From: an uncultured Chloroflexia bacterium
GTDB taxonomy: Bacteria; Chloroflexota; Anaerolineae; Anaerolineales; UBA4823
Length of the DNA stretch: 64,000 nt
Direction of reading: 5' to 3'
Assembly (NCBI GenBank): GCA_963743215.1
Contig: CAVUOY010000007.1
Location: forward strand, 121,019 to 185,018
Shown piece after piece: positions 2,579-35,773 of this stretch (position 1 is the first letter of the stretch; each line of letters starts with the position of its first letter). The notes beneath the pieces were generated by a model that saw nothing but the letters and a program-made list of their open reading frames with translations, was not told the origin of the DNA and did not search any database. A program made the position numbers and the translations under genes.

Positions 2579-2752
2579 ATGGGTGACGCAACAGCCAATC
2601 CAATATATATCGCAATGCTTTGTATTCCGCGTTGCCTGGTGCCTTTGTTGATCTTATTCGGGGTTTCTTATCTGCTACGTCGTTTCGGAGTAATCGCAAA
2701 ACCTGCTCCTCCTTCAGACGAATTTCAAAAAAGTGATGAGAATAGTAATTAA
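2579..2752 (+). CDS. small single-pass membrane protein, hypothetical
   Basis: GGAGG RBS 8 nt upstream of ATG 2579; one hydrophobic helix (IYIAMLCIPRCLVPLLILFGVSYLL); its stop sits inside the RBS of the next gene. Confidence 0.35.
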   Translation: MGDATANPIYIAMLCIPRCLVPLLILFGVSYLLRRFGVIAKPAPPSDEFQKSDENSN

Positions 2753-2765
2753 GGAGGATCGGGAA

Positions 2766-4613
2766 ATGTCAAAGTCTTCTATCGTCAATAAAATGCCCGG
2801 TATATTTCTACTATTGGGTTTCCTCGTCCTGCTTAGCTTGATTTGGGTTTCTCCTTCCCAGGCCAGCCAGCCGAAACAGCAAACCGAAGAATATTGTTTA
2901 AGCTGCCATTCCAATTCTGATCTTTCACTTACCCTCCCAAGTGGCGAGACCCTTTCGTTATACATCAATTCTGACGAGTTACAAACCTCCGTCCACAGTC
3001 CGAATGGGATTGAATGCGAAGCCTGCCATACCAACATTACCACCTACCCTCATCCGGCGATTAATTACCAGAACAAGCGCGAATTAACCAGAGTTTATTA
3101 CACCGCCTGCCAGAAATGTCACCCCGATAACTATTCAAGGACTCAGGATAGCATGCACGCTCAGGTCGCTGAAGCAGGCAATCTCAACGCCCCCGTATGC
3201 ACTGATTGCCATGGATCCCATTATATCCACCCACCCAGTGAACCGCGCACCTTGATCCCGGAGACGTGTGGCAACTGTCACACCCAGGAATTTTCCGTCT
3301 ACCAGGCCAGCGTGCATGGGAATGCCTTGATTCAGGAATCAAATCCCGATGTTCCCGTCTGCACTACCTGCCATGGTGTGCACAATATTCACGACCCACG
3401 CACCCAGCAATTCAGGGTGCAGGAACCCGATTTATGCGCTAGCTGTCACGCAAATCAAGAAATGATGGCTAAATACGGCCTATCGGCCGACGTGTACAGC
3501 TTGTACAGCCTATCCTGGCATGGTGTGGATGTATCCATTTACCAGGCCCGCTGGCCAACAATCCAGCATACCTCTGCCGTATGTACCGATTGCCATGGCA
3601 TCCATGACATCCTAAAGCCTGACGATCCGAGCTCATCAGTCAATCCGAAAAACCTGCTGGTCACCTGCCAGAAGTGTCACCCGGGTGTCAGCTCGAATTG
3701 GACCGGCGCGTGGACCGGACATTACAAAGTCAGCCTACAGCGAACCCCAATTCTATTCTACGTCGATTCTTTTTACTCGATTTTTACGCCTGCCATCCTG
3801 TGGATTTGTGGGATATACGTTGCCCTTCAATTCATAAGGTTTATGGTTGATCGAGTAAGGAGGAAGCTTATGACCAACCAACATCCACCCAGCTCTATCT
3901 CACCGAATCATCCCGTCAGGTTGGTACGCACTTTTCCGCGCTTCAGCGTCAGTCAGCGTTCGGAACATGCAGTTTTTCTCCTTTGCATTGCAATCCTCCT
4001 GCTTACCGGTTTACCCCAGAAATTTAACACCTCCACCTGGAGTCAGGCGATCATCTCTTCACCTGACAGGTTGAACCTGATCCAGCAAATACACCATATC
4101 ACTGCATTGGTTCTATCCGCCCTGGTTTTATACCACCTGGGACGGGCGATTTACCTCATCGCCAGGCGGAAACTACCCGGTGATATGCTACCAACATTTC
4201 AGGATGTGAAAGATGCCTGGAATATGCTGCTCTACCTTATTTTCATAAAAAAACAGAAGCCTGCTTTTGGGAAATTCAATTTTGAGCAAAAGGTCACCTA
4301 TTGGTTCCTGTTCTTTTCAGTCGGGATCATGATCGTCTCCGGTTTTATCATGTGGTTTCCAGACGTGGTCACCCGCCTCCTACCTGGTGGAGTTATCCCA
4401 GGTGCGATTATGGCTCACAGTACAGAAGCGATCGTCACGATCATTTTTGTGATCCTCTGGCATTTCTACCATGTGCATCTCGAGCGTCTCAACCTGAGCA
4501 TATTTTCCGGCTGGCTAAATGATGAAGATATGCGCAGCTATCATTCCCTTGAATATGACCGGCTGATCAACAAGTCTCATACCGATCAGGATCCAGGAGA
4601 AATGAAGTCATGA
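2766..4613 (+). CDS. nonahaem cytochrome c fused to FdnI/HydC-type dihaem cytochrome b (CbcL-like)
   Basis: Signal/anchor helix, 9 CXXCH motifs, then a 4-helix domain with RSEHAVFLLCIAILLLTGLPQKF and WHFYHVH typical of formate-dehydrogenase gamma / Ni-Fe hydrogenase b-type cytochromes; AAGGAGG RBS. Confidence 0.85.
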   Translation: MSKSSIVNKMPGIFLLLGFLVLLSLIWVSPSQASQPKQQTEEYCLSCHSNSDLSLTLPSGETLSLYINSDELQTSVHSPNGIECEACHTNITTYPHPAINYQNKRELTRVYYTACQKCHPDNYSRTQDSMHAQVAEAGNLNAPVCTDCHGSHYIHPPSEPRTLIPETCGNCHTQEFSVYQASVHGNALIQESNPDVPVCTTCHGVHNIHDPRTQQFRVQEPDLCASCHANQEMMAKYGLSADVYSLYSLSWHGVDVSIYQARWPTIQHTSAVCTDCHGIHDILKPDDPSSSVNPKNLLVTCQKCHPGVSSNWTGAWTGHYKVSLQRTPILFYVDSFYSIFTPAILWICGIYVALQFIRFMVDRVRRKLMTNQHPPSSISPNHPVRLVRTFPRFSVSQRSEHAVFLLCIAILLLTGLPQKFNTSTWSQAIISSPDRLNLIQQIHHITALVLSALVLYHLGRAIYLIARRKLPGDMLPTFQDVKDAWNMLLYLIFIKKQKPAFGKFNFEQKVTYWFLFFSVGIMIVSGFIMWFPDVVTRLLPGGVIPGAIMAHSTEAIVTIIFVILWHFYHVHLERLNLSIFSGWLNDEDMRSYHSLEYDRLINKSHTDQDPGEMKS

Positions 4614-6058
4614 GGGCTGTAAGAACACACCTGTTTTTATACTTTATTGGTGTAATCCTCATCGGCAGCATTACCATTTTGCACTTTGCAACGGAGGCGA
4701 ATGCGGCACCAATCGAACAAGCCTCCCAAAACAACATTCAACAGCAGGGTTTGCCAAATGTGACTTCGGCTGAACCCATTGTGAGTAACGAAACCTGCTT
4801 GGAATGCCATGACCAGCCAGGGCTAACGATGACCCTTCTGAATGGGGATGTTCTGGATCTTTACGTCAATCCCGACGTTTATTCGGCCTCTATCCATGGT
4901 AAGGATGGGTATGCCTGTGTTCAATGTCATACCAACCTGGGAGAATATCCGCATCCCTTATTTACCGCAACCAGTCTTCGTGACGCTACGCTTCGCTTGA
5001 CTAACTTGTGTGACCGCTGTCATTCGGGCGAATATAACCTGACCATGGATAGTGTCCATTATGATAAGCTGGCTATCGGCATTAAAGAAGCCGCCGTTTG
5101 CACAGATTGCCATGGGTCACATGATGTGCATCAGTGGATCGACCCCAAAACCCAGGAAATACTACCCGAAGCCCGGCTAAGTATTCCTGCCACGTGTTCC
5201 AAGTGCCATAATGCAATCTATCAAAAGTATCGTACCAGCGTACACGGTGCTGCGCTGACCGATGAAGCAAACACGGATGTCCCCACCTGCATCGACTGCC
5301 ATGGGGTTCATAATATCGGGAATCCAACGACTGCAGAGTTCCGCCTAAAATCGCCTGAACTTTGTGCCGGTTGCCATACAAACCCCAATTTAATGGACAA
5401 ATACGGGATTTCTACCAATGTCTTGAATACCTATGTGGCTGATTTCCATGGTACAACGGTCACATTATTCGAGAAGCAATCCCCCGACGCTCAAACGAAT
5501 AAACCGGTTTGTTATGACTGCCATGGTGTGCACGACATCACCCGGGTGGACGACCCGAAAACCGGGATTGATATGCAGCAAAATCTCCTGGTGCGCTGTA
5601 AAGTCTGTCATCCCGATGCCACCAGCAATTTCCCTAGCGCCTGGATGTCTCATTACATCCCCTCGCCAGACCACTACTCCCTGGTTTATTACGTTGATCT
5701 ATTTTATAAATTCTTTATTCCAGCAGTCCTTGGTTTTATGCTAGCCATGGTTGGACTGGATGTAGGTCATACCGCCTTTATTAAAACACGGCGTGGAAAA
5801 CGTCATCTCGAACCCACCTCAACCCAGGCTCAAACAGATACAGCACCCGAATCATCCACGCTAGCTCCCTCGAGTGCAGAGGCTACCGACCAGCCAGTTC
5901 TATCTGAGAATGTTGAGATTAAGGGTGAACATAGTGAGCAAAGTGAGCTGAGTGCGCTCAACATGCCACTAGAAGAAGGCAACCAGGCTGATCAAAAAGA
6001 GGAAACCCAACCAGATAATCAGAGCGAAAATCCTGATGAGGAGGTGACCCATGAGTGA
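4610..6058 (+). CDS. nonahaem cytochrome c, membrane anchored, acidic low-complexity C-terminal tail
   Basis: ATGA start/stop overlap with upstream gene; 9 CXXCH motifs collinear with the c-domain of 2766-4613; C-terminal TM helix then about 100 aa rich in E/Q/S/T. Confidence 0.85.
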   Translation: MRAVRTHLFLYFIGVILIGSITILHFATEANAAPIEQASQNNIQQQGLPNVTSAEPIVSNETCLECHDQPGLTMTLLNGDVLDLYVNPDVYSASIHGKDGYACVQCHTNLGEYPHPLFTATSLRDATLRLTNLCDRCHSGEYNLTMDSVHYDKLAIGIKEAAVCTDCHGSHDVHQWIDPKTQEILPEARLSIPATCSKCHNAIYQKYRTSVHGAALTDEANTDVPTCIDCHGVHNIGNPTTAEFRLKSPELCAGCHTNPNLMDKYGISTNVLNTYVADFHGTTVTLFEKQSPDAQTNKPVCYDCHGVHDITRVDDPKTGIDMQQNLLVRCKVCHPDATSNFPSAWMSHYIPSPDHYSLVYYVDLFYKFFIPAVLGFMLAMVGLDVGHTAFIKTRRGKRHLEPTSTQAQTDTAPESSTLAPSSAEATDQPVLSENVEIKGEHSEQSELSALNMPLEEGNQADQKEETQPDNQSENPDEEVTHE

Positions 6059-7259
6059 CACCACTGTGGATACTCACTCAAGAGTCACCCCCTCCGATGA
6101 CAAGATCACATATTCGCGTTTTGATATTTCGCAGCGTATCGAGCACATTGTCTTTTTATTATCATTTACGATATTAGGCTTTACTGGATTGATCCAAAAA
6201 TTTTCCACCAGCCAGGTCAGCGATACCTTGATTTTTATTCTGGGTGGCATTGAACGGGTGCGCATTATTCACCATTACAGTGCCATCGTCATGATGATCG
6301 TGAGTGGATATCATGTGCTCGCGTTAGCTTATAAAATATTCGTCCTGCGGGTCAGATGGACCATGTTGCCCGTTATCGAGGACCTTCAACATCTCTTCCA
6401 GGATATTCTATTCTTCATCGGTATCCGAAAACATCGCGGCTATTACGGTCGTTATAACTACGCTGAAAAAGTCGAATACCTGGCTGTCGTATGGGGTACG
6501 ATAATCATGGGTCTATCGGGCTTCATGATGTGGAACCCCCTCTCCACCACCCGCCTGTTACCCGGAGATTTCATCCCCGCGGCTAAAGCCGCCCATGGAG
6601 CAGAGGCCATCCTGGCTGTTCTGGCAATCATCATCTGGCATTTCTATCACGTCCATGTCAAGCATTTCAATAAGAGCATGTTCAACGGCAAGATTACTCG
6701 CACAGATATGATACACGAACACCCCGCTGAGCTTGCTCAGTTAGAATCAGGTCAGGGGAATAAACGGATCCCGGTGAAAGTTCTCAGGCGCAGGCAACAG
6801 GTTTTCTTCCCGGCTGCCCTGATTTTCACCCTTGCATTCGGTTTCGGTATTTATAAGTTCGCCAATTTTGAGGTAACTGCAATAACCACAATCCCTCAAG
6901 GGGAAACTGCCCAGGTCTATGTTCCGGTAACACCTACCCCCAGACCATCTCCTACACCTCCACCCACCCTCGAACCCGGTGCTGAAGTAAGTGCCATGAC
7001 CTGGGAAGGCTATTTCTCCGGCTTATTCCGCAATCGATGCGGCTCTTGCCACGGGATAACCAATGTTGGAGGGTTGAGCCTTTCGACCTACCAGGATGCA
7101 CTCGTTGGCGGTAATTCAGGTCCGGCTATCGTTCCTGGCGACTCCGATAACAGTGTTCTGGTCCTAAAGCAATCCGCGGGCAATCATCCCGGGCAGCTGA
7201 CGATCGACGAGCTGGCTCAGGTCATTGCCTGGGTTAAGTCAGGTGCCCCAGAGAAATAA
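6051..7259 (+). CDS. FdnI/HydC-type cytochrome b with Pro-rich linker and C-terminal monohaem cytochrome c (PSCyt1-like) domain
   Basis: 8-nt overlap with upstream gene; FDISQRIEHIVFLLSFTILGFTGLIQKF and WHFYHVHV parallel the b-domain of 2766-4613; extra TM; PTPRPSPTPPPT linker; CGSCHG ... WVKSGAPEK tail. Confidence 0.8.
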   Translation: MSDTTVDTHSRVTPSDDKITYSRFDISQRIEHIVFLLSFTILGFTGLIQKFSTSQVSDTLIFILGGIERVRIIHHYSAIVMMIVSGYHVLALAYKIFVLRVRWTMLPVIEDLQHLFQDILFFIGIRKHRGYYGRYNYAEKVEYLAVVWGTIIMGLSGFMMWNPLSTTRLLPGDFIPAAKAAHGAEAILAVLAIIIWHFYHVHVKHFNKSMFNGKITRTDMIHEHPAELAQLESGQGNKRIPVKVLRRRQQVFFPAALIFTLAFGFGIYKFANFEVTAITTIPQGETAQVYVPVTPTPRPSPTPPPTLEPGAEVSAMTWEGYFSGLFRNRCGSCHGITNVGGLSLSTYQDALVGGNSGPAIVPGDSDNSVLVLKQSAGNHPGQLTIDELAQVIAWVKSGAPEK

Positions 7260-7272
7260 TGGAGTACAACAC

Positions 7273-8928
7273 ATGAGAAATTTTTTCAAACGCCTGGGTA
7301 AAGCATTACGTACTTTCTTTTTCCCGCCCGCTGACTCCAAAATGTGGATTAGAGTGCTACCATACGCCATTTTAGGCGTTCTGACATTGATCGTCTTGAT
7401 TGGGGCAGCATATGGATGGCAATACACCAATAGCCCACAATTTTGTGGGACCTCCTGCCATACCATGCCTCCTGAATACTCTGCTTATCTGGCATCACCG
7501 CATGCCCGGGTGGATTGTGTAGAGTGCCATATCGGTCGTGGTTTCATCGCCACGCAGATTACCCGCAAAGCTGGAGACCTTCGGCATGTTTTTGCGACTG
7601 TGCTGAAAAACTATGATTACCCGATTTTCGCCACGAACATGCGCCCTGCCAGAGACACTTGCGAGAAATGTCACAACCCGGATAAATTTTCAGATGACAG
7701 CCTGCGTGAAGACAAGCGTTACCAAAATGATCTCGATAATACCGCTTATTCTATTTTCCTCAGCCTCAAAACTGGTGGCGGTACCTCCCGCCAGGGACTT
7801 GGAAAGGGTATCCACTGGCATGTGGAAAATCGAGTGCTGTATTATGCCACCGACGAGCTGCAGGAGAATATTCCTTATATCCGTGTTTATAATGCGGATG
7901 GCACCTATACTGAATATACCGATATCGCTTCCAGTTATAACCCGGCAGAACTCAAGGAATCTGACTTGAAAGAGATGGATTGCGTAACCTGTCATAATCG
8001 CGTCACCCACCTCGTGCCTATGCCAGCAGATGAAGTCGATACCGCCCTGGCGCGCGGGCTCATCGATAAAACTATTCCAGATATCCGCTTGAAAGCAGTC
8101 GAGGTTCTCAGCGCTGCTTACACCTCCCAACAAGAAGGGTTGAATGGCATTGCCGGGTTGAATAATTATTACCAGGCCTATTACCCTGATTATTACGCTG
8201 CTAACACTGCTGCTATTCAAAACGCCATCGCGTATATCCAGAGTGTGTATTCCTCATCAGTCAACCTGGATCAAAAATCAGATTGGAATACACATCCTAA
8301 TAACATCGGTCACATGGATTTCCCGGGTTGTTTTCGCTGCCATGATGGCAAACACCTGGATGCTTTGCAGCAGGCGGTTCGGTTGGAATGCAATCTTTGC
8401 CATACGGTGCCCACAGTCGCAGGGCCGTCAAAATTTGTCGCAGATATTGAAATCTCGCGTGGCCCTGAACCCGAAACTCATCTGAATGCCAACTGGATTG
8501 CGATCCACAACCAGGTATTTAACCAGACCTGCAGTGATTGCCACACCACTGAGAATCCCGGTGGAACCGATAACTCCTCTTTTTGCTCGAACAGTGCCTG
8601 CCATGGAATAACCTGGAAGTATGCGGGTCTTTCTGCTCCTGAGCTGCGCCAGACGATCCTGTCTTCACTTCCCCCTACCCCCACCCCATCTCCATTGGAC
8701 CTGTCAGGAGCACTGACTTTTGATGCGTCCATCGGACCATTGTTCCAATCCCGCTGCGGGTCTTGCCATGGTGAGAATGGCATACAGGGGCTAAATCTAA
8801 CCACCTACCAGACGGCAATCCAGGGTGGAACGAATGGCTCTGTGATCATCCCGGGTGACGCAAATGCGAGTCCGCTTATCCAGAAACAATCTGGTGCCCT
8901 GCCTCATTTTGGCCAGCTTAACGCCTGA
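7273..8928 (+). CDS. NapC/NirT(NrfH/CymA)-like membrane-anchored multihaem cytochrome c with C-terminal PSCyt1-like domain (tail frameshifted, continues to 8980 in +1 frame)
   Basis: N-terminal TM helix followed by FCGTSCHTM...CVECHIG...CEKCH arrangement typical of NapC/NirT quinol dehydrogenases; 7 CXXCH plus CX3CH and CX4CH; see findings for frameshift. Confidence 0.7.
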   Translation: MRNFFKRLGKALRTFFFPPADSKMWIRVLPYAILGVLTLIVLIGAAYGWQYTNSPQFCGTSCHTMPPEYSAYLASPHARVDCVECHIGRGFIATQITRKAGDLRHVFATVLKNYDYPIFATNMRPARDTCEKCHNPDKFSDDSLREDKRYQNDLDNTAYSIFLSLKTGGGTSRQGLGKGIHWHVENRVLYYATDELQENIPYIRVYNADGTYTEYTDIASSYNPAELKESDLKEMDCVTCHNRVTHLVPMPADEVDTALARGLIDKTIPDIRLKAVEVLSAAYTSQQEGLNGIAGLNNYYQAYYPDYYAANTAAIQNAIAYIQSVYSSSVNLDQKSDWNTHPNNIGHMDFPGCFRCHDGKHLDALQQAVRLECNLCHTVPTVAGPSKFVADIEISRGPEPETHLNANWIAIHNQVFNQTCSDCHTTENPGGTDNSSFCSNSACHGITWKYAGLSAPELRQTILSSLPPTPTPSPLDLSGALTFDASIGPLFQSRCGSCHGENGIQGLNLTTYQTAIQGGTNGSVIIPGDANASPLIQKQSGALPHFGQLNA

Positions 8929-9012
8929 AGAGTTGAACCTGGTCATTGAGTGGATCAATGCTGGAGCACCGGAAAAATAATTAATCACCACCATTGCCAA
9001 AGGAGGTGAAAT

Positions 9013-9495
9013 ATGGGTGAAACGAAAGAGCTCAGCCGGCGGAATTTTATGCAAGCCGCTATCTGGGGAATTGGGGGGTTAATTGGGATTGGGTTTGGGG
9101 TGCCGGCGGTTGCATATGTCGTCGGTCCTGCATTAAAAAGCTCACAAACACAAACCTGGATGCGTCTGGGTCCAACTTCCAAGGTGGAGCTAGGCACTCC
9201 GACATTGTTTACCTTCACCATCCAAACCCAGACGGGTTGGATCGTGAATGCACAAGAAGTATCGGTATATGTGCTTTCTACTGACGGACGCACCTATATT
9301 GCAATGTCGAATATCTGCACCCACCTTGGCTGTCACATCCGTTGGATTAGTGAGCAGAATCAATTCTTCTGCCCTTGCCATAATGGAGTATTTGACGTTT
9401 CCGGTAATGTCATTTCCGGACCACCTCCTCGCCCGCTGGCGCGCTACGATGTCAAAATTGAAAATGATCAATTGTATGTGTTGGTAGGAGGTTGA
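9013..9495 (+). CDS. Rieske [2Fe-2S] subunit of a cytochrome bc/b6f-type complex
   Basis: SRRNFMQAA Tat motif plus TM; CTHLGCH and CPCHNGVF Rieske boxes; AAGGAGG RBS. Confidence 0.9.
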   Translation: MGETKELSRRNFMQAAIWGIGGLIGIGFGVPAVAYVVGPALKSSQTQTWMRLGPTSKVELGTPTLFTFTIQTQTGWIVNAQEVSVYVLSTDGRTYIAMSNICTHLGCHIRWISEQNQFFCPCHNGVFDVSGNVISGPPPRPLARYDVKIENDQLYVLVGG

Positions 9496-9496
9496 G

Positions 9497-10162
9497 ATGG
9501 CATCAAAAATAAGCCAATGGCTGGATGAACGTACTTCGATCAGCAAGATTTGGGAAGTTATCTTCCTGCGGAAAATACCAAAGGTCAATTGGTTTTATAC
9601 ACTCGGGAGTGCCTCCTTATTCGTTGCCCTCAATCAGGCAATTACCGGCATCTTATTGACCATTTATTACGTCCCCACACCCGATCACGCCTACGACAGT
9701 GTTCAATATATTACCACCCAGGTTCCTTTAGGATGGCTGATCCGTGGGCTGCACCATTGGGGTGCCAGCGCCTTGATCATTCTGGTTGTCTTGCATATGC
9801 TCAGGGTGATCCTGTTCGGAGCTTATAAATTTCCCCGTGAAGTCACCTGGTTTACCGGCGTGATCTTGCTATTGGTGGTAATTGGTTTCGGCTTTACGGG
9901 CTATCTATTACCTTGGGATCAAAAAGCATTCTGGGCAACTACCGTCGGTACACAAATCGCGGGAACTCCACCGCTGATAGGGAATTATCTGCTGCGCATT
10001 ATCCGCGGTGGCAGCGAGATATCTGCAGTCACATTGGTACGCTTCTTCGGTACCCATGTATGGGTACTCCCAGCCATCTTACTCCTGCTCATCGGGATCC
10101 ACCTTTTCCTGGTCATCCGTAACGGCATCAGTGCAGTGCCAAAGAAAGGCGGCGACCAATGA
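9497..10162 (+). CDS. cytochrome b6-like (cytochrome b N-terminal four-helix) subunit
   Basis: WFYTLGSASLF..., GLHHWGASALIILVVLHMLRV, GYLLPWDQKAFWATTV conserved cytochrome b signatures; starts 2 nt after Rieske stop. Confidence 0.9.
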   Translation: MASKISQWLDERTSISKIWEVIFLRKIPKVNWFYTLGSASLFVALNQAITGILLTIYYVPTPDHAYDSVQYITTQVPLGWLIRGLHHWGASALIILVVLHMLRVILFGAYKFPREVTWFTGVILLLVVIGFGFTGYLLPWDQKAFWATTVGTQIAGTPPLIGNYLLRIIRGGSEISAVTLVRFFGTHVWVLPAILLLLIGIHLFLVIRNGISAVPKKGGDQ

Positions 10163-12279
10163 ACGAGAAAGAAAAGCAGGCTTACCTTGAGAAATATCAC
10201 CAGGAAAAAGAGCACGGCGTCCCATTTTTCCCAGATATCATCTTCAAAGACGTCGTAATATCCTTTGTCATATTTTTAATCTTGATCGTGCTCGCATCCC
10301 GTCTCGGGGCTCCCCTGGAAGCCCGTGCAAATCCGGCGGATACGTCTTACACCCCACAACCCGAATGGTATTTCTTATTCCTATACCAACTATTAAAATA
10401 CTTCCCCGGTAAGCTCGAGGTGGTGGGTATTGTGCTCATCCCTATGGTTGCGATCATTGTGCTATTTTTATTACCACTCCTGGACCGGTCCACGAAACGT
10501 CATTTTCTGGATCGTCCGATCGTCTCTGGCGTCACGCTGTTGGTTGTGGCAGGAATAATCACGCTCACCATCCTGTCAGTCCGTGAAGCTCCTCCTCCGG
10601 TTCAGGCGACCCAAGGAGATCCCGTCGCCCTGCTATATACCCAAAACTGCGCGCCCTGCCATGGTTCATCGATCAGTGTTCCAGCCGGGACAAACCTTCA
10701 TAACCTGATTGCCCAAGGTTCACACGCAGGAATGCCCGCCTGGAGTGGAGATTTATCCTCCGATCAGATCGATGAGCTTGCCGGTTTCATTCTTTCACCG
10801 GGGGGAAGTCAGCTTTTCAATACGAATTGTGGATCCTGCCATAAAGTAGAAGATTTGGTCGGTGGAAATCCACTCGACCTAAAAAACGCTATTGATGAAG
10901 GTCTTAACTTTTCCCCGCATGCTCAACTCCAGGCTTCTGACTTGTCTGCAAATTTAACCTCCGACGAGAAAACCACATTACTTAATTTCTTGATTGCGCC
11001 GGATGGTCAGCGTTTATTCACCATCTATTGTTCAGCTTGCCATGGTCAATCCGTTGCCTATTCAGGTGAAGAAGCTCAGCTACGCCAGACAATTATCCAG
11101 GGGGGGCAGCATATTACCATGCCTGCCTGGCAAAACACACTCAGCACAGCTCAGATCGAGACACTGGCAAATTTCGTTGTGATTCCTTCTTCGGAACCTA
11201 CTGGACCAACTTTATTCCGACAGTACTGCTCTACCTGCCATGGAACCCTCATCCCCACCGCCACAGACGTCGATCAAGCTCGTCAGGTTATCGCCACTGG
11301 AGGCGCACATCAAACCATGCCAGACTGGGGAAAGGTACTCACCCAGGCTCAGATCGATGCCCTGGTGAATTTCGTCATATCCTCAACTCAAGGAACTTCT
11401 GTTGAGCGGGGTCAAACCTTGTTTGCCCAGAACTGCGCCATTTGCCACGGTGATTTTGGAGAAGGCGGTCCCAATCCGGCTAATCAAAATCAGATCATTG
11501 CTCCCATAGGATCAGCAGAATTTCTGAATACCCGCGATGATACTACCTTGTTCCAGATCATCTCTCAAGGGCAACCCGACCAGGGTATGTCGCCATTCGG
11601 CTCTGCCAATGGGGGTAATTTAGATGATGATCAGATCAATTCAATCGTGGCGTACATTCGCTCATGGCAGGCAAACCCGCCTGTGACAGCACCACCGCAA
11701 TATACCATTCCTATCCTGTCACTTTCTGCCAGCGATGTGTATAAAACCATCTGTACCCAATGCCATGGGCAAGAAGGTGCAGGAACCATATTGGGACCAA
11801 CATTAAACGACTTGTCTGACGACACCGATGAGGAAATTTCCACGGTGATCGGTCAGGGTATATCGAATACCAACATGCTCTCGTTTGGTTCCTTCTTATC
11901 AGATAGTCAAATCCAGGGATTGGTGGCACTTATTCGCCAGTTCCCTCCATCAGAAACGTCCCCGCTGGGAACTCCCACTGTTGAGCCAATTTCATCCACT
12001 CCTACATTTGAAGCGGATATCTTGCCCATTTTCGAACAAGACTGTAAGGTGTGCCATGGAACATTAGGCGGCTGGGACAGCACTACTTATCAAGCGGTGA
12101 TGACTACGGGTGATCATGCTCCGGTTGTGATCCCTGGAGACACGATCAATAGTCTCTTGGCTCAAAAACTGGTAGGAACTTCTACGACTGGCGGAATTAT
12201 GCCTCCGGGTGGAGAGCTTCCCGATGCGATCATAAAAATTATCCTGGACTGGATCGCGGCAGGTGCACCTGAGAAATAG
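10159..12279 (+). CDS. cytochrome bc subunit IV (cytochrome b C-terminal part) fused to seven monohaem cytochrome c domains
   Basis: ATGA overlap with cytochrome b6 gene; PEWYFLFLYQLLKYFPG motif and 3 TM helices; then CAPCHG, CGSCH, CSACHG, CSTCHG, CAICHG, CTQCHG, CKVCHG each with downstream Met-containing class I-like segment; ends WIAAGAPEK. Confidence 0.85.
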   Translation: MNEKEKQAYLEKYHQEKEHGVPFFPDIIFKDVVISFVIFLILIVLASRLGAPLEARANPADTSYTPQPEWYFLFLYQLLKYFPGKLEVVGIVLIPMVAIIVLFLLPLLDRSTKRHFLDRPIVSGVTLLVVAGIITLTILSVREAPPPVQATQGDPVALLYTQNCAPCHGSSISVPAGTNLHNLIAQGSHAGMPAWSGDLSSDQIDELAGFILSPGGSQLFNTNCGSCHKVEDLVGGNPLDLKNAIDEGLNFSPHAQLQASDLSANLTSDEKTTLLNFLIAPDGQRLFTIYCSACHGQSVAYSGEEAQLRQTIIQGGQHITMPAWQNTLSTAQIETLANFVVIPSSEPTGPTLFRQYCSTCHGTLIPTATDVDQARQVIATGGAHQTMPDWGKVLTQAQIDALVNFVISSTQGTSVERGQTLFAQNCAICHGDFGEGGPNPANQNQIIAPIGSAEFLNTRDDTTLFQIISQGQPDQGMSPFGSANGGNLDDDQINSIVAYIRSWQANPPVTAPPQYTIPILSLSASDVYKTICTQCHGQEGAGTILGPTLNDLSDDTDEEISTVIGQGISNTNMLSFGSFLSDSQIQGLVALIRQFPPSETSPLGTPTVEPISSTPTFEADILPIFEQDCKVCHGTLGGWDSTTYQAVMTTGDHAPVVIPGDTINSLLAQKLVGTSTTGGIMPPGGELPDAIIKIILDWIAAGAPEK

Positions 12280-12281
12280 GC

Positions 12282-13769
12282 GTGATGGCTGAGTTTTTTA
12301 CCAATAACATTATCCTTGTATACTTCTTTTATGGATTGTCCTTCTTTGTGATGGGATTGGCAGTCCTGCTCGAATTTGGACATGCCTCAAAGTTGGATTT
12401 TTCACGTGCCTTACGCCCATTAATTGGTTTCGGTTTAATCCATGGATGCCACGAGTGGTTCGAGATGTTTCTGCTTATTCGCGAGCGCGTTACCGGACCA
12501 TTCGCTGCTCCTTGGATTTTGCCGGTTCGATTAATGGCTTTAGCAACATCATTTCTATTTTTAATCGCCTTTGGAGCTCGGCTGATCAGCGGGGTTGAAA
12601 AACGTCGCTTATACGTTGGAATGCTATCGATAATCACCGCAATCTGGGTGATTGGTCTGCTTGGGGTACTGTTCAACCCCTCCACAAGCCAAAGCCGCGC
12701 CATCGCTGCCGACGTCTATACCCGCTATGCTTTGGCAATTCCAGGCGCAGCTCTCACTGTTTGGGGATTGATCATTCAGCGCCGTAAATTCATCCAGATT
12801 GGCATGTCCAGTTTTGGGTTTGATGTCTTGTTGGCAGCCATTGCTTTTGGTTTGTATGGGGGTATTGGCCAATTATTTGTTAGCAAGAGTATCATCTTTC
12901 CTTCTCAATATTTAAACTCTGCAGAATTCCTAAGCTGGTTTGGGTTTCCGATTCAGGTCTTCCGGGCTGGCACAGCCACCATGGCTGCCATCTTCATCAC
13001 CCGTTCACTACGCGCTTTTGAGGTCGAAAGCAACCGCCGCATCGAAGAGCTTCGTGACGCCCAGTTGGCTGAACAACAGCGACTGGATGACTTACGGGCA
13101 GAATTACTCCATCGGACCGTGATCGCCCAGGAATCTGAACGGCGACGCATCGCCCGTGAGTTACACGATGAAACCGGTCAGACTTTAACCGCTCTCGGAA
13201 TGGGTTTACGAGGAATGTCTGAGACCATCTCCACCAATCGCGACCGGGCGATTGAACAGGCTAGTCAGCTCGAAAAATTAGCCATGGCTGGGGTTGAAGA
13301 GCTGCAGCATATGGTCTCTGGTCTTCATCCTCCTCAGCTGGATGATTTGGGCTTGTTGGCAGCATTGCGTTGGTATACATCTGATATTAGTAATCGCACC
13401 GGTTTGGTCATTAATATAGTCAACCAAGGTGGTAAGCCAAAATTAACTTCAGACATACGGGCTGTGGTATTCCGCATTGCACAGGAAGCGATCAACAATG
13501 TCGTCCGCCACGCCAATGCCAGTCGCATTGATATCCAATTGGTCTATACCCACAATAATATCTATCTTCGGGTTGAAGATAACGGTCAGGGTTTTAATAC
13601 CGAACTGGTCTTGAAAAAAAAGCCAGGCAGACCAACCGCCTGGGGATTGCTTGGAATGGTTGAACGTGCCTCGTTGGTAGGTGGATCTTGTAATATTTTT
13701 TCTCATCCCGGGAAAGGCACACTTATAGAAGTCAATGTACCCATTATCGGAGAGACACAAAATGCATGA
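12282..13769 (+). CDS. sensor histidine kinase, HisKA_3/NarX-LiaS type, multi-pass membrane sensor domain
   Basis: About 6-7 N-terminal TM helices with no large periplasmic loop; ERRRIARELHDETGQTLTAL phospho-acceptor box; HATPase region (NNVVRHANA, DNGQGF, GLLGMVERA). Confidence 0.85.
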   Translation: MMAEFFTNNIILVYFFYGLSFFVMGLAVLLEFGHASKLDFSRALRPLIGFGLIHGCHEWFEMFLLIRERVTGPFAAPWILPVRLMALATSFLFLIAFGARLISGVEKRRLYVGMLSIITAIWVIGLLGVLFNPSTSQSRAIAADVYTRYALAIPGAALTVWGLIIQRRKFIQIGMSSFGFDVLLAAIAFGLYGGIGQLFVSKSIIFPSQYLNSAEFLSWFGFPIQVFRAGTATMAAIFITRSLRAFEVESNRRIEELRDAQLAEQQRLDDLRAELLHRTVIAQESERRRIARELHDETGQTLTALGMGLRGMSETISTNRDRAIEQASQLEKLAMAGVEELQHMVSGLHPPQLDDLGLLAALRWYTSDISNRTGLVINIVNQGGKPKLTSDIRAVVFRIAQEAINNVVRHANASRIDIQLVYTHNNIYLRVEDNGQGFNTELVLKKKPGRPTAWGLLGMVERASLVGGSCNIFSHPGKGTLIEVNVPIIGETQNA

Positions 13770-14415
13770 TATTAATTTATTACTCGTTGATGATCATCAA
13801 GTGGTACGTACCGGATTAAGAATGCTTTTGGAAGGTCAGCCAGATATGAAAATTGTTGGTGAAGCTGATAGCGGTCTACAAGCACTCGAAAAAGCCAAAG
13901 AATTATCGCCCGATGTAATCGTGATGGATATTACCCTGCCAGATATCTCCGGGATTGAGGCTACAAAACGGATCAAGGAAGAGCTGCCAAATACGGCAGT
14001 GGTTGCTCTGACAATCCATGAGGATGAGCAATATTTCTTTGAGATGTTGCAAGCGGGTGCCTCAGGTTACGTTCCAAAACGTGCCGCTCCAGAAGACCTG
14101 ATCACCTCTATTCGGGCTGCCTATGCAGGGGAAATTTATATATATCCTTCCTTGGCTAAAGCCCTGGTAGCTGACTTCCTGGGTCGTTCATCCCAAGGGA
14201 ACGAGAAGTCATCCATCGATGGGTTGACGACCCGTGAACAAGAAGTGTTGGGCCTTTTAGCTGAGGGGTTGAGCAATGACGAAATTGGAGAATCATTACA
14301 AATCAGCAAACACACGGTTGCCCGCCATCGCGAAAACCTGATGCGCAAGCTGGAACTGCACTCACGCAGCGAATTGGTAAAATACGCCATACGGAAGGGA
14401 TTAATCTCAGCTTGA
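13762..14415 (+). CDS. NarL/FixJ-family response regulator (REC + LuxR-type HTH)
   Basis: LLVDDHQVVR...DVIVMDITLPD receiver motifs; C-terminal LTTREQEVLGLLAEGLSNDEIGESLQISKHTV; GGAGAG RBS; overlaps kinase stop by 8 nt. Confidence 0.9.
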   Translation: MHDINLLLVDDHQVVRTGLRMLLEGQPDMKIVGEADSGLQALEKAKELSPDVIVMDITLPDISGIEATKRIKEELPNTAVVALTIHEDEQYFFEMLQAGASGYVPKRAAPEDLITSIRAAYAGEIYIYPSLAKALVADFLGRSSQGNEKSSIDGLTTREQEVLGLLAEGLSNDEIGESLQISKHTVARHRENLMRKLELHSRSELVKYAIRKGLISA

Positions 14416-15174: not shown

Positions 15175-17397
15175 ATGAATTACAAGAAATATCTTATTGT
15201 CGGTTTGCTGCTGATTGGCCTGGCTCTGGCCATAGCGGCCTGTTCGAGTCCACCTGCAACTACCGCTGTGGTACCACCCACTCAGGCATGCCCGACATGC
15301 CCTGCAGCTCCAGCTTGCCCGACAGCAGAGCCTTGCCCTGTTCCTGTGGTCGCAGATGTGCCATTTCAAGAAGCCTGGGTGAATTCTCCCCACGCTGATG
15401 CGACCGCTGAGGCATTCCGCCATTGGGATGAGGATGATCCGAAAGAAGTCCCCACCAGTTGTGCCAAATGCCACACCCCCACCGGTTATATGGATTTCCT
15501 GGGTGCCGATGGTTCCGCAGCTGGTGTTGTGGATGCCGCCCAACCAGTCAGCAATGGTATCACCTGTGTTGCCTGCCATAACGATACTGCCGCTGCCCTT
15601 TCTGAAGTGACCTTCCCTTCCGGAGCAGTTGTCTCAGATCTGGGTCCTTCAGCACGCTGCATGGTTTGCCATCAGGGTCGTGCATCTGGTGCCGATATTA
15701 ACGCCCAAATCGCTACCAATGTCCTGACTGACACGCTTGACACTGTCAGCACCGAGCTAAAATTCACCAACATCCACTATTTCGCAGCAGCCTCAACATT
15801 ATATGGTAGTGTGGTGAGTGGTGGTTACCAATATGCCGGCAACGAATACGATGGCAAGTTCCAACATGCTGGTGGGTTAGATTCCTGCATAAATTGCCAT
15901 AATCAGCATACACTGGAAATCAGAGTCGAAACTTGCCAGGAATGCCATACCAACGTCTCTTCTAAAGCAGATTTGGTAAACATCCGTATGAATGGCTCCC
16001 TTGAAGACTATAATGGAAACGGAGATGTCACCGAAGGGATTTCAGCTGAAGTTTCCGGTCTCCAGAGTATGCTTCTGCAGGCTATCCAGGCTTATGGAAA
16101 AGAGGTCGCCGGCACACCCATTGGATATGACGCAGCCACTAACCCGTACTTCTTCATCGATACCAATGACAATGGAACCATTGATGCTGACGAAGCCAAC
16201 TCGGATAACCGCTATGCTTCCTGGACCGGTCGGCTGTTGAAGGCTGCATTTAACTACCAGCTTTCAATCAAAGACCCCGGCGCTTTCGCTCACAATGCCA
16301 AGTATGTCATTGAGCTGGTGTATGACTCAATCGCTGACCTGAACACTAAACTGGCTTCACCGGTCGATCTCACCAAGGCTCATCGCACAGATGCAGGGCA
16401 CTTCGCAGCCACAGAGATGGCTTTCCGTGATTGGGATGGTGAAGGTGCTGTACCAGCCACCTGCTCCAAATGCCACTCGGCCACAGGATTGCCTCTATTC
16501 ATACATGAAGCAGCTGCTTCCAGTGACGGCGTTACCGGTGTGACGATTAGCCAACCCGTCTCACAGGGTTTCGCCTGCACAACCTGCCATGATGGCTCCA
16601 ACTTCCCCGCCACTTACGCGGTAGAAGCGGTGAAGTTCCCAAGTGGATCCATCCTTACCTTTGGAGATGAAGCTCCAGCTAACATATGTATTGAATGCCA
16701 TCAGGGTCGCGAATCCACCGTTAGCGTCAATAAAGCGATTGGTGATAAACCTGCTGACACCGTCGATGCCACCTTGCGCTTCAGAAATCCGCACTATTTT
16801 GGTGCTGGTGCCACGTTATTTGGAACCGAAGCTCAAGGAGCCTATGAATATACTGGTAAAACATACCTGGGACATCATGCTCACGTAGATGCTGGTCAAT
16901 CATGCGTAACCTGCCACAATGTACATGATTTATCAATCAACACTCAGCTTTGTGCAGGCTGCCATGGTGGTGCTACCGAACCGGAAAAAATCCGCATGGG
17001 AACCACCGACTATGACGGTGATGCCAATACCACCGAAGGCATGTACGATGAAGTTGCCACCGTGGAAGAACTGCTCCTGGCCGCAATTCAGAAGTATGCT
17101 ACTGATAAAGCAGGCTCTCCGGTTGTATACGATGCCGCATCCTACCCGTATTTCTTCATCGATACGAATGCAAATGGTGTTGGCGATCCAGACGAATTAG
17201 TCAGAGCTAATGGTTATGCTTCCTGGACGCCTCGCATGCTCCGCGCATCCTACAATTACCAGTGGGTCCAGAAGGATCCGGGTGCCTTTACTCACAATGG
17301 CAAGTACATCTTGCAAGTCCTATATGACAGCCTCCAGGATGTCGGCGGTGATGTTACGAAGCTGACCCGCCCAGTAATCCCTGCTGTTACCCCATAA
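15175..17397 (+). CDS. decahaem cytochrome c lipoprotein with internal two-fold (2 x 5 haem) repeat
   Basis: Signal peptide with lipobox LAIAAC; Cys/Pro-rich tether; 10 CXXCH (5 per half); halves aa 70-390 and 407-725 align motif by motif; GAGGAGAG RBS. Confidence 0.85.
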   Translation: MNYKKYLIVGLLLIGLALAIAACSSPPATTAVVPPTQACPTCPAAPACPTAEPCPVPVVADVPFQEAWVNSPHADATAEAFRHWDEDDPKEVPTSCAKCHTPTGYMDFLGADGSAAGVVDAAQPVSNGITCVACHNDTAAALSEVTFPSGAVVSDLGPSARCMVCHQGRASGADINAQIATNVLTDTLDTVSTELKFTNIHYFAAASTLYGSVVSGGYQYAGNEYDGKFQHAGGLDSCINCHNQHTLEIRVETCQECHTNVSSKADLVNIRMNGSLEDYNGNGDVTEGISAEVSGLQSMLLQAIQAYGKEVAGTPIGYDAATNPYFFIDTNDNGTIDADEANSDNRYASWTGRLLKAAFNYQLSIKDPGAFAHNAKYVIELVYDSIADLNTKLASPVDLTKAHRTDAGHFAATEMAFRDWDGEGAVPATCSKCHSATGLPLFIHEAAASSDGVTGVTISQPVSQGFACTTCHDGSNFPATYAVEAVKFPSGSILTFGDEAPANICIECHQGRESTVSVNKAIGDKPADTVDATLRFRNPHYFGAGATLFGTEAQGAYEYTGKTYLGHHAHVDAGQSCVTCHNVHDLSINTQLCAGCHGGATEPEKIRMGTTDYDGDANTTEGMYDEVATVEELLLAAIQKYATDKAGSPVVYDAASYPYFFIDTNANGVGDPDELVRANGYASWTPRMLRASYNYQWVQKDPGAFTHNGKYILQVLYDSLQDVGGDVTKLTRPVIPAVTP

Positions 17398-34249: not shown

Positions 34250-35773
34250 CTAGTCAAATTTACCGATAACTTTTTCCACCTCATCCAGAATTTCTCCTGA
34301 TTTGATCAATTCCTTCATCCGGTTGTGGTCAGTATGCAAAGGTCTATCCACATCTAGATGGGCAACGTACTTTCTGATCACATCATGCGCAGCCTGTACT
34401 CCTCTCCCAGGAGTAAATTCCCGAAAGTCCAATGCCTGGGCAGCTGCCATAAATTCGATCCCCAGGATACCGTAGGCATTATCCAGGATTTGACCATTCT
34501 TAATCGCTGTATTCATACCCATCGAAACAAAATCCTCCTGGTCAGCCGCAGCCGGTATCGATTGAATGCTGGCTGGCATAGAAAGGATGCGTTGCTCGAC
34601 GATCAACGTATCCGCCGTATATTGGCTGAGCATCATTCCCGAGAACATCCCCGCCCCTTTCGTCAGGAATTCGGGCAATCCCACACTGAGTGCTGAGTTG
34701 GTCAAGCGGTTCAACCTGCGCTCGGATAACACGCATACCATCGTGATGGCTGCGCCTGCCATGTCCATTGGCAGGCTCACCGGGGAACCTTGGAAATTCG
34801 CTCCGGTTAATGTCAGGCGGTAATCGGGCAGGAATATTGGGTTATCCCCCACACCGTTCAATTCAATCTCCACCTGGCTTTGGGCATAGTTGATCGCATC
34901 CAGGGCTGCTCCAATCACCTGGGGTGATGAGCGCATTGAATAGGCATCCTGCACCTTGGTTTTCATCTTACCGGTTGTAAGGTCGCTTCCTTCAACACAC
35001 TTCAAGATCGCCTTTGCCGTCCAGATGGCTCCATTAAATCCTCTCGCCTGGTGTAAACGCACATCGTATGGTTTCAAGTTCGCCAGCAGTGCTTCAAGGC
35101 TCATCGCGCATGCAATTACCGCTTGTTTAAGCCAGCGATTCATGTCATAAAGGTGCAATGCGCTCATCGCAGTCAATAAGTTTGAGCCATTAATGGTTGC
35201 TAACCCATCGCGTGCCTGTAAACCAGGGATGGGAATTCCAGCTCTTTCCAAGGCTACCCGCCCGGGTAACCGCTCCCCCTGAAAATAAGCCTCTCCTTCA
35301 CCCATCAGCAACAATGCAATCTGAGACATGGGAGCCAGGTCTCCACACGCGCCCACTGAGCCTTTCTGACACACGACCGGTGTCACGCCTTTATTCAACA
35401 TCTCCACCAAAGTCATCGTGATCTCAGGCCGGCAGCCAGAATTGCCATGGGCATGCACATTCACCCTGCCTGCCATTGCACCTCGGATGTGTTCTATCGG
35501 ACAGGGTTCCCCAATCCCGGCTGCATGGTTATAGATCAGGTATTTCTGAAATTGCTGCACCTGCTCATCGTTCAACACACGCTCAGAGAATTCACCGATC
35601 CCGGTATTCACCCCATACATGATCTCATGCGCTTTGAGCTTTTCTTCCACCATCGCCCGGCAGGCTTTGATTCTTTCAAGCGCTTCCGCGTGTAGCTCAA
35701 CTTTCTCCCCATGACGGGCAATCTGCATCAATTTTTGTGTGGTTAAACCCGTTCCATCGATGGTGATCGTCAT
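34250..35773 (-). CDS. MIO-dependent aromatic amino-acid/histidine ammonia-lyase family enzyme (lyase or aminomutase), Ala-Cys-Gly variant
   Basis: YGVNTGIG, NHAAGIG, GSVGACGDLAPMS (MIO loop), NGSNL..., QEDFVSMG family blocks; AAGGAGAAG RBS. Confidence 0.85.
   Translation of the reverse strand: MTITIDGTGLTTQKLMQIARHGEKVELHAEALERIKACRAMVEEKLKAHEIMYGVNTGIGEFSERVLNDEQVQQFQKYLIYNHAAGIGEPCPIEHIRGAMAGRVNVHAHGNSGCRPEITMTLVEMLNKGVTPVVCQKGSVGACGDLAPMSQIALLLMGEGEAYFQGERLPGRVALERAGIPIPGLQARDGLATINGSNLLTAMSALHLYDMNRWLKQAVIACAMSLEALLANLKPYDVRLHQARGFNGAIWTAKAILKCVEGSDLTTGKMKTKVQDAYSMRSSPQVIGAALDAINYAQSQVEIELNGVGDNPIFLPDYRLTLTGANFQGSPVSLPMDMAGAAITMVCVLSERRLNRLTNSALSVGLPEFLTKGAGMFSGMMLSQYTADTLIVEQRILSMPASIQSIPAAADQEDFVSMGMNTAIKNGQILDNAYGILGIEFMAAAQALDFREFTPGRGVQAAHDVIRKYVAHLDVDRPLHTDHNRMKELIKSGEILDEVEKVIGKFD

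Follow-up and report, generated by a model that had tools for sequence, protein, structure and literature searches.

Cytochrome c domains that are fused or tethered to respiratory enzymes are already known. Rhodobacter cytochrome c_y, the caa3-fused cytochrome c and CcoP all have tethered class I cytochrome c domains, and in the Bacillus-type b6c complex the QcrC protein is a subunit IV fused to cytochrome c. The PSCyt1 domain (Pfam PF07635) is also catalogued, and in its classical planctomycete setting it forms the N-terminus of large PSCyt2/PSD1 proteins. In Geobacter, CbcL, CbcBA and ImcH are inner-membrane quinol oxidoreductases, ExtOPQ comprises Rieske/b genes, and electrons are passed to soluble periplasmic cytochromes; we know of no Geobacter protein with a PSCyt1 tail. 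FoxE of Rhodobacter ferrooxidans SW2 (PDB code: 5mab) is a soluble periplasmic dihaem Fe(II) oxidoreductase that has Met distal ligands and a swapped ligand order (PMC10654088). Lineage-specific fusions of cytochrome c to respiratory enzymes also occur in the Anaerolineales, an example being an extra fused 'C1' cytochrome c domain, specific to that order, on the NirS of Chloroflexi (PMC8756737). Here we analyse a stretch of 64,000 nucleotides (hereafter, the window) from contig CAVUOY010000007.1 of an uncultured Chloroflexia bacterium, the first 17.4 kb of which form a single co-directional cluster of genes, A–M. Three proteins of this cluster, the products of genes F, G and J, each finish in a monohaem segment of about 90 residues with a single CxxCH motif and a terminal GAPEK directly before the stop codon.

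The reading that best fits the evidence, and that we consider probable, is that these tails are built-in tethered electron carriers, old paralogues in two ligand classes that would serve different redox ranges or partners. The sequences themselves establish that the tails are homologous members of one family, conserved and syntenic, that they split by the residue at the ligand position and that their copy number varies; how the haem is ligated, its potential, the mobility of the tail, the direction of flow and the partners are predictions. Relatives of the cluster were collected as 78 loci from a scan of one genome per species, and 155 well-scoring tails were taken from these loci for comparison.

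Three membrane proteins with a shared cytochrome module

Gene F (positions 6051–7259; all features of the window described here lie on the forward strand) encodes an FdnI/HydC-type di-haem cytochrome b (PF01292, residues 23–213), followed by a linker and one C-terminal PSCyt1-type module. The cytochrome b portion scores 35.6 bits against PF01292 (cut-off 30.1); since its scores are far below the formate dehydrogenase gamma equivalog cut-offs, we do not regard it as an Fdn subunit. A fifth transmembrane (TM) helix (residues ~250–268) and a Pro/Thr-rich linker (residues ~271–315) lead into the tail (6996–7256), which has CGSCH at residues 330–334, an invariant histidine, His379 (codon 7185–7187), and the GAPEK end.

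Gene G (7273–8980) encodes a multihaem cytochrome that is NrfH/NapC-like and membrane-anchored; counting that of its PSCyt1-type end, it has nine haem motifs. The protein matches Pfam Cytochrom_NNT (PF03264) with 42.2 bits (cut-off 24.1) and the NrfH structure 2j7a with an E-value of 3e-9, and it aligns to TIGR03153 over its first ~100 residues only (63 bits, cut-off 134). Two of its haem motifs are non-canonical (7440–7460 and 8580–8605), being CGTSCH (CX3CH) and CSNSACH (CX4CH), and the former is followed by T-M, as in the CXXCHXM motif of NrfH haem 1. The tail of G spans positions 8713–8980, with a CGSCH motif, an invariant His codon (CAT, 8905–8907), a frameshift near 8918 and the GAPEK end.

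Gene J (10159–12279) encodes a subunit IV with three TM helices to which six class I cytochrome c domains are fused, followed at the end by a PSCyt1-type module, as recognized by PF00032, PF13442 (five stretches) and PF07635. It has seven CxxCH motifs, not six, the six cytochrome c domains and the tail together accounting for them. In its tail (12001–12276), CKVCH occupies residues 629–633 and the invariant residue is a methionine, Met681 (codon 12199–12201), set within G-G-I-M-P-P-G ahead of the GAPEK end. Genes H, I and J lie adjacent with overlaps and encode a Rieske protein, a cytochrome b6 of four helices and a subunit IV of three, the last with a C-terminal c haem, the composition of a QcrABC-like complex; scores for this set stay below the NCBIfam equivalog cut-offs. 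A cytochrome b6 gene lies directly upstream of J in all 23 of the 23 related loci.

The original prediction placed one and the same module on these three proteins and assigned it to PSCyt1. The family assignment stands, and the tails are homologous, although they are not one identical module (see below). The three tails lie in frame with their host reading frames at the positions given above, and comparison of the last 100 residues by blastp returned E-values of 4.7e-31 for F and G (49.5% identity), 8.8e-22 for G and J (39.8%) and 9.5e-17 for F and J (33.7%). No fourth copy was found when the tails were searched by tblastn against all 64 kb, the next matches (E of 0.002 or greater) being CxxCH stubs. 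In the hidden Markov model search the proteins scored 33.1 (F), 28.1 (G) and 25.9 (J) bits against PSCyt1, all above the whole-protein gathering threshold of 22 bits, with coverage of profile positions 1–43, 1–45 and 1–57, respectively, out of 59. Each tail has one CxxCH motif, CGSCH in F and G and CKVCH in J, and the G tail additionally matches Cytochrome_CBB3 (PF13442) with 41.6 bits. Proteins of this kind are tagged PF07635 in databases, where the assignment is precomputed for most metagenomic homologues. The module family is large: 25,226 cluster representatives were found at E of 1e-3 or lower, 3,423 at 1e-10 and 88 at 1e-30.

A profile built from the three tails was used to search for solved homologues. 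The best match was FoxE (E of 6e-10), in three stretches aligned from CxxCH to WI.AGAP, with weaker matches to the CxxCH regions of actinobacterial QcrC, CcoP and cytochromes c6; PDB entry 6xkx was also among the hits. An AlphaFold2 (AF2) model of the F tail (100 residues, 107 aligned sequences) has a mean predicted local distance difference test score (pLDDT) of 91.7 and comprises four helices (residues 16–32, 45–50, 67–74 and 83–94), the N-terminal helix ending at CxxCH. The invariant histidine, His77 in the numbering of the model, lies in the loop (75–82) between helix 3 and the C-terminal helix. In class I cytochromes c the distal (sixth) ligand is located in the loop before the C-terminal helix, and the model of the F tail has the corresponding elements of that fold, namely the N-terminal CxxCH helix, the C-terminal helix and the ligand loop. 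By sequence and model, the module is a small class-I-like c-type cytochrome domain.

The terminal GAPEK was also considered as a C-terminal sorting signal, which is ruled out: internal tandem copies of the module in related proteins likewise end in WI.AGAPE, followed by a linker. As judged from these sequences, GAPEK is part of the domain.

A linker rich in Pro, Thr and Ser (17–22% P, 14–17% T, 27–46 residues) precedes all three tails, extending a feature that had earlier been noticed in two of them. The fifth TM helix of F is preceded by KVLRRRQQ, G has an N-terminal anchor, and the subunit IV portion of J has three TM helices. In the topology of b6f and bc complexes the C-terminus of subunit IV is on the positive side, and the J tail is accordingly placed outside because its subunit IV has three helices. 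By predicted topology, all three tails are on the outer face of the cytoplasmic membrane.

The end of gene G is out of frame, as had been remarked, through a single extra base near 8918. Frame 1 stops after GQLNA and the remainder, TPEELNLVIEWINAGAPEK up to its stop codon, reads in the +1 frame; at 8910–8925 the window has CAGCTTAACG where its six closest relatives, L001–L006, have CAGC-TCAC. The codons beyond this point stay conserved, which leaves a sequencing indel or a mutation of very recent date to explain the frameshift. That one of three genes is frameshifted could be taken as a sign that the likeness of the tails reflects chance, low complexity or an artefact of assembly or annotation, but that explanation has a negligible probability. 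It is refuted by pairwise E-values reaching 5e-31 and by the recurrence of the same fusions in dozens of independent assemblies, and the scores of all three tails above the Pfam gathering threshold and the conservation of the sequence behind the frameshift also speak against it.

Host-specific tails and a division between His and Met

The 155 tails comprise 57 on F-type cytochrome b hosts, 58 on G-type NrfH-like hosts, 24 on J-type hosts in which subunit IV is fused to multiple cytochrome c domains, and 16 others (in fragments, in arrays that stand alone and, in three Caldilineaceae-type loci, on a TM-anchored protein). Mean identity is 0.47–0.56 within a host class and 0.31–0.41 between classes, and the nearest neighbour belongs to the same host class for 127 of the 139 F, G and J tails. 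Because the tails group by host protein, they are not interchangeable, and their fusion to the hosts is old. At the DNA level, the similarity between the three tails of the window is confined to the last 20–40 nt. The host-class grouping, combined with the lack of wider DNA similarity, shows the fusions to be ancient and maintained by selection at the protein level. The same confinement of DNA similarity rules out that the tails were recently duplicated or converted.

The classes differ at the position expected for the sixth haem ligand. A histidine is invariant there on F-type (57/57) and G-type (58/58) tails, 115 of 115 together, while the J-type tails have an invariant G-x-[IV]-M-P-P (24/24). 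The distal Met-Pro-Pro near the end of the PSCyt1 profile is thus present in the J tail and replaced by His in F and G; F and G tails are without the Met-Pro-Pro insertion of J tails, and in the window neither has any Met after its CxxCH. We infer that the His is an axial ligand from its invariance and its position in the loop rather than from coordinates. Bis-His ligation has precedent among c-type cytochromes, PsbV being an example.

The same division is seen beyond the three host classes. Multi-copy proteins among the best 150 cluster representatives are mostly uniform in ligand type, and the arrays on cytochrome b are almost all of the His type. Examples of tandem His-type cytochrome b hosts are found in L027 (7922–10243), L026 (8756–10678) and L016 (2–1111) and in proteins P0121–P0126; arrays of the Met type that are without cytochrome b include P0129 (1,830 residues, eight matched stretches) and P0127. 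In one Caldilineaceae metagenome-assembled genome (MAG; L063, 1986–10306), a complete operon for alternative complex III (ACIII) is present, with ActA, ActB, an ActC-ActD fusion, ActE and a 399-residue gene product that has no Pfam match. It is followed by a TM-anchored protein of 228 residues with a PSCyt1 module and the GAPEK end, and this ACIII-associated tail is of the Met type; similar proteins are found in L076 and L078. With J and ACIII tails having Met and F and G tails having His, Met goes with complex-III-type enzymes and His with quinol dehydrogenases of the b and NrfH types. For the F and G tails we predict bis-His ligation and, by analogy with PsbV and other bis-His cytochromes, a lower potential; those associated with Rieske/b6 and ACIII are predicted to be His/Met cytochromes of higher potential.

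The original prediction had interpreted the shared module as one docking point for a common acceptor, possibly the decahaem lipoprotein encoded by gene M (15175–17397; ten CxxCH motifs, a lipoprotein-like N-terminus with an AIAAC lipobox-like signal, and a weak match to GSU1996, PDB code 3ov0). Three quinol oxidases would then feed a single outlet through three equivalent plugs. The domain family is indeed the same on all three proteins, and gene M occurs in the island in 24 of the 34 loci that are fully flanked. It is missing, however, from about a third of these, and among 22 fully flanked loci there are 13 in which no more than 5 kb separates it from G, a count that can be cited for either view. 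The tails moreover form host-specific subfamilies with 31–41% identity between classes, their predicted distal ligand differs by class, copy number on cytochrome b ranges from one to six, and two other modules of the same island, D and A-B-C, are tail-less. All tails are acidic (mean net charge -3.9 to -5.5 across classes), as plugs for one acceptor might be, but since every class is acidic the net charge is uninformative on shared versus separate partners. The claim of one shared docking point is therefore not supported, and we regard a common acceptor as distinctly improbable.

The earlier statement that the module always occupies the extreme C-terminus holds for the three proteins of the window, but not for some relatives, in which the cytochrome b has between two and six modules in tandem, separated by linkers rich in Pro, Thr and Ala.

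Proposed tethered carriers and alternative roles

The island is best viewed as a respiratory one, possibly for extracellular electron transfer, that is conserved across Anaerolineae-type Chloroflexota. Three of its plausibly quinol-interacting membrane modules, namely E-F (a multihaem protein with an FdnI-like cytochrome b), G (NrfH/NapC-like) and H-I-J (Rieske, b6 and subunit IV), each end in a Pro/Thr-rich linker and a small class-I-like cytochrome domain of the PSCyt1/FoxE type, placed by topology on the outer face. In the proposed mechanism the tail is the last, mobile haem of its enzyme and would move electrons from the last fixed haem to partners. Chloroflexi have been reported to be monoderm, without an outer membrane (PMC7399161, PMC5808234). 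Cells of this kind would not retain a soluble carrier, and the tails may do the job that soluble periplasmic cytochromes do in diderms. That the carrier is tethered is suggested by the Pro/Thr-rich linker, the position at the end of the polypeptide, the variable copy number and the occurrence of anchored versions that stand alone. Since the ligands fall into two classes, the His and Met tails are probably tuned to separate redox ranges or partners instead of one outlet.

Several points weigh against this proposal. Searches of the tail model against the PDB with Foldseek returned weak matches (5c2v with an E-value of 0.39, cytochrome cz and a dihaem cytochrome c). In sequence alignments the His is one or two positions off from the Met. 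The AF2 model of full-length F, built from a shallow alignment of closely related sequences, has a pLDDT of 52.5, and because it is so poor it was not used to judge linker flexibility or tail position. In addition, the product of gene E (4610–6058) already provides an extracytoplasmic multihaem path, so that it is not evident why F should require a further, mobile haem.

Gene E encodes a multihaem cytochrome with a DmsE/MtrA-like decahaem region and a C-terminal TM helix, as assigned by Pfam and NCBIfam, and is a probable partner subunit of F. Its C-terminus (5750–6055) has a long acidic, low-complexity stretch after the TM helix (…EEGNQADQKEETQPDNQSENPDEEVTHE), which is presumably cytoplasmic. 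E is directly upstream of F in 43 of 44 related loci, and the two genes overlap by 8 nt (6051–6058). Similar start/stop overlaps join D to E (4 nt, 4610–4613) and I to J (4 nt, 10159–10162), and all three suggest translational coupling.

Such close association of E with F can also be accommodated if the tails are fixed internal relay haems, folded back on their own complex (for F, between cytochrome b and E) with the linker as a mere spacer. The co-evolution of the tails with their hosts is in keeping with that arrangement, and the J tail could be simply the seventh of seven c-type domains. Against it, however, stand the long linkers (27–46 residues), which are of low complexity and rich in Pro and Thr; as many as six modules in one array, joined by linkers of a like kind, would be hard to pack if their haems were fixed; and stand-alone TM-anchored versions exist. 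A fixed relay is in our estimation somewhat unlikely.

The direction of electron flow bears on a further alternative. The three complexes had been described as quinol-oxidising: an interaction with quinol is plausible by homology, given their FdnI-like, NrfH-like and Rieske/b6/subunit IV character, but the direction that the term implies is unproven. The tails could conversely be points of electron entry for Fe(II) or another extracellular donor, in the manner of FoxE, with the Rieske/b6 complex running partly in reverse. That the closest solved homologue is an Fe(II) oxidase (PMC10654088) favours such a role, as does the joint occurrence of multihaem cytochromes and a Rieske/b complex, which recalls the ExtOPQ-like genes of Geobacter. 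The homology to FoxE is nevertheless at the level of the domain alone, FoxE being a soluble dihaem protein with both haems Met-ligated (PMC10654088), and no homologues of FoxY or FoxZ were noticed in general Pfam scans of the window. Sequence, moreover, cannot give the direction of flow, and we consider electron entry quite unlikely.

A more far-reaching version of the tethered-carrier proposal is that the His-type modules constitute an unrecognised low-potential bis-His branch of PSCyt1, with one to six beads on Pro/Thr tethers extending from menaquinol dehydrogenases to form a flexible electron 'cord'. We regard this as unlikely, but if true the cord would carry electrons from the cytoplasmic membrane through the wall of monoderm filamentous Chloroflexota and on to extracellular acceptors, donors or neighbouring cells, and it would be a design for extracellular electron transfer unlike porin-cytochrome conduits and cytochrome nanowires.

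The gene island and its relation to known systems

The remaining genes of the cluster fit a respiratory setting. By Pfam, gene A, of which the window has the C-terminal end, encodes a multihaem protein, B a 4Fe-4S subunit and C a membrane subunit of the NrfD type (23–2445 together), none with a tail; the A remnant has a C-terminal TM helix, and B has an N-terminus that resembles a twin-arginine translocation signal. Judged by these families, A-B-C is a fifth, tail-less quinone-interacting module of the island, and its gene order is kept in many of the 78 loci. Gene D (2733–4613) encodes a multihaem cytochrome fused to an FdnI-like cytochrome b (PF01292 and multihaem families), with structure matches to 1kqf_C (E of 8e-6) and to 6r2q_A (E of 5.5e-6), which we take to be MtrA. 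It is tail-less, and none of the 78 loci has a tail on it. D resembles a fused, tail-less paralogue of the E+F pair (4610–7259), giving the appearance of two adjacent CbcL-like modules with a tail on just one.

Gene H (9013–9495) encodes the Rieske iron-sulfur subunit (PF00355, 46 bits), and gene I (9497–10162) a four-helix split cytochrome b of the b6 type (PF00033, 175.5 bits). The latter resembles the cytochrome b6 subfamily and Geobacter ExtP, in both cases below the cut-off (for ExtP, 219.8 bits in NCBIfam, where 290 would be required); subunit IV matches ExtQ. Genes K and L (12282–14415), identified from the list of open reading frames (ORFs), encode a histidine kinase and a LuxR/NarL-type response regulator and are neighbours in 25 of the 34 fully flanked loci. 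Between 20 and 64 kb, the window encodes sugar-binding proteins, histidine ammonia-lyase, aldehyde:ferredoxin oxidoreductase, DNA repair genes and others, and no terminal oxidase or reductase fit to act as acceptor was found in this part. The aldehyde:ferredoxin oxidoreductase (AFOR_N/AFOR_C, 36456–38282) and the aromatic amino acid/histidine ammonia-lyase (34250–35773) are unrelated to the tails.

Nearly all of the 78 loci are labelled as Anaerolineae, Anaerolineales, Caldilineaceae, Ardenticatenaceae, Promineifilaceae, Thermoflexales or plain Chloroflexota. Two loci with the same island or module (L030 and L077) come from MAGs labelled Gammaproteobacteria and Actinomycetota, probably owing to mis-binning or mislabelling rather than transfer. 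The complete order of the window, ABCDEFGHIJKLM with tails on F, G and J, is found again in L001, L003 and L004, and elsewhere the sub-blocks E-F, G, H-I-J (each with its tail), K-L, M and A-B-C occur in shuffled orders; the three fusions are usually in the same gene island across related loci. In L055, an ORF of ~2.4 kb on the minus strand near the cluster was judged by eye to encode a CcmF/ResC-like cytochrome c biogenesis membrane protein, and it belongs to a cluster of ORFs present in 15 loci. Full-length F has 3,509 homologues at E of 1e-10 or lower; the best 120 of these combine almost without exception PF01292 with PF07635 and are mostly exactly 402 residues long. Homologues of F are annotated merely as 'cytochrome b subunit of formate dehydrogenase' or 'cytochrome b/b6 domain-containing protein'.

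In the literature searched, we found no description of one module reused on three or four quinol-interacting enzymes of a single Anaerolineae island, of a host-correlated split between His and Met, or of tandem arrays on cytochrome b. The papers that mention PSCyt1 include none on Chloroflexota respiratory fusions, and those on Anaerolineae multihaem proteins, bc complexes and Ardenticatena do not describe the tails. Sediments, soils, sludge and anode communities are rich in Anaerolineae, which are suspected of extracellular electron transfer (PMC7399161, PMC5808234), for which no pathway has been defined so far. The tails of this widely conserved island are testable candidates for a means of keeping 'periplasmic' carriers without an outer membrane, and their clean His/Met split by host enzyme may serve in metagenomes as a sequence marker that tells the low-potential from the high-potential branches of these chains. 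The tails also give PSCyt1, whose role is unknown, a clear bioenergetic context.

With PSCyt1 as catalogued, the tails share the single CxxCH, the GG.sGp.i.PGd...S.L core and the WI..GA C-terminal helix, and the J tail keeps the Met-Pro-Pro. They differ in having a host from the Chloroflexota and not the Planctomycetota, in their placement at the C-terminus of respiratory membrane enzymes and, for F and G, in a His where the Met motif would be. No membrane enzyme is fused to FoxE, which has two haems and is without a His variant, whereas the tails are monohaem and fused; the attributes of the FoxE family (a soluble dihaem protein with both haems Met-ligated, in a foxEYZ context) are not those of the tails. 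With Geobacter the island shares an FdnI-like cytochrome b with multihaem cytochrome c, a multihaem protein of the NapC/NirT family and a Rieske/b complex, all side by side, although the sequence similarity of its proteins is below the family cut-offs. The NirS C1 domain is likewise an Anaerolineales-specific extra cytochrome c domain on a respiratory enzyme, but it is found on other enzymes and as an N-terminal fusion. H-I-J has in common with the Bacillus b6c complex the Rieske protein, the split four-helix b6 and a subunit IV with a C-terminal c haem on the outer face, and differs from it in that J has seven haem domains versus one, the last being of the PSCyt1 type. In concept the tails resemble cytochrome c_y, caa3 and CcoP, whose class I cytochrome c domain shuttles electrons at the end of a long, flexible linker while anchored to the membrane; here, the enzyme itself would be the anchor, the domain is from another family, and tandem arrays occur.

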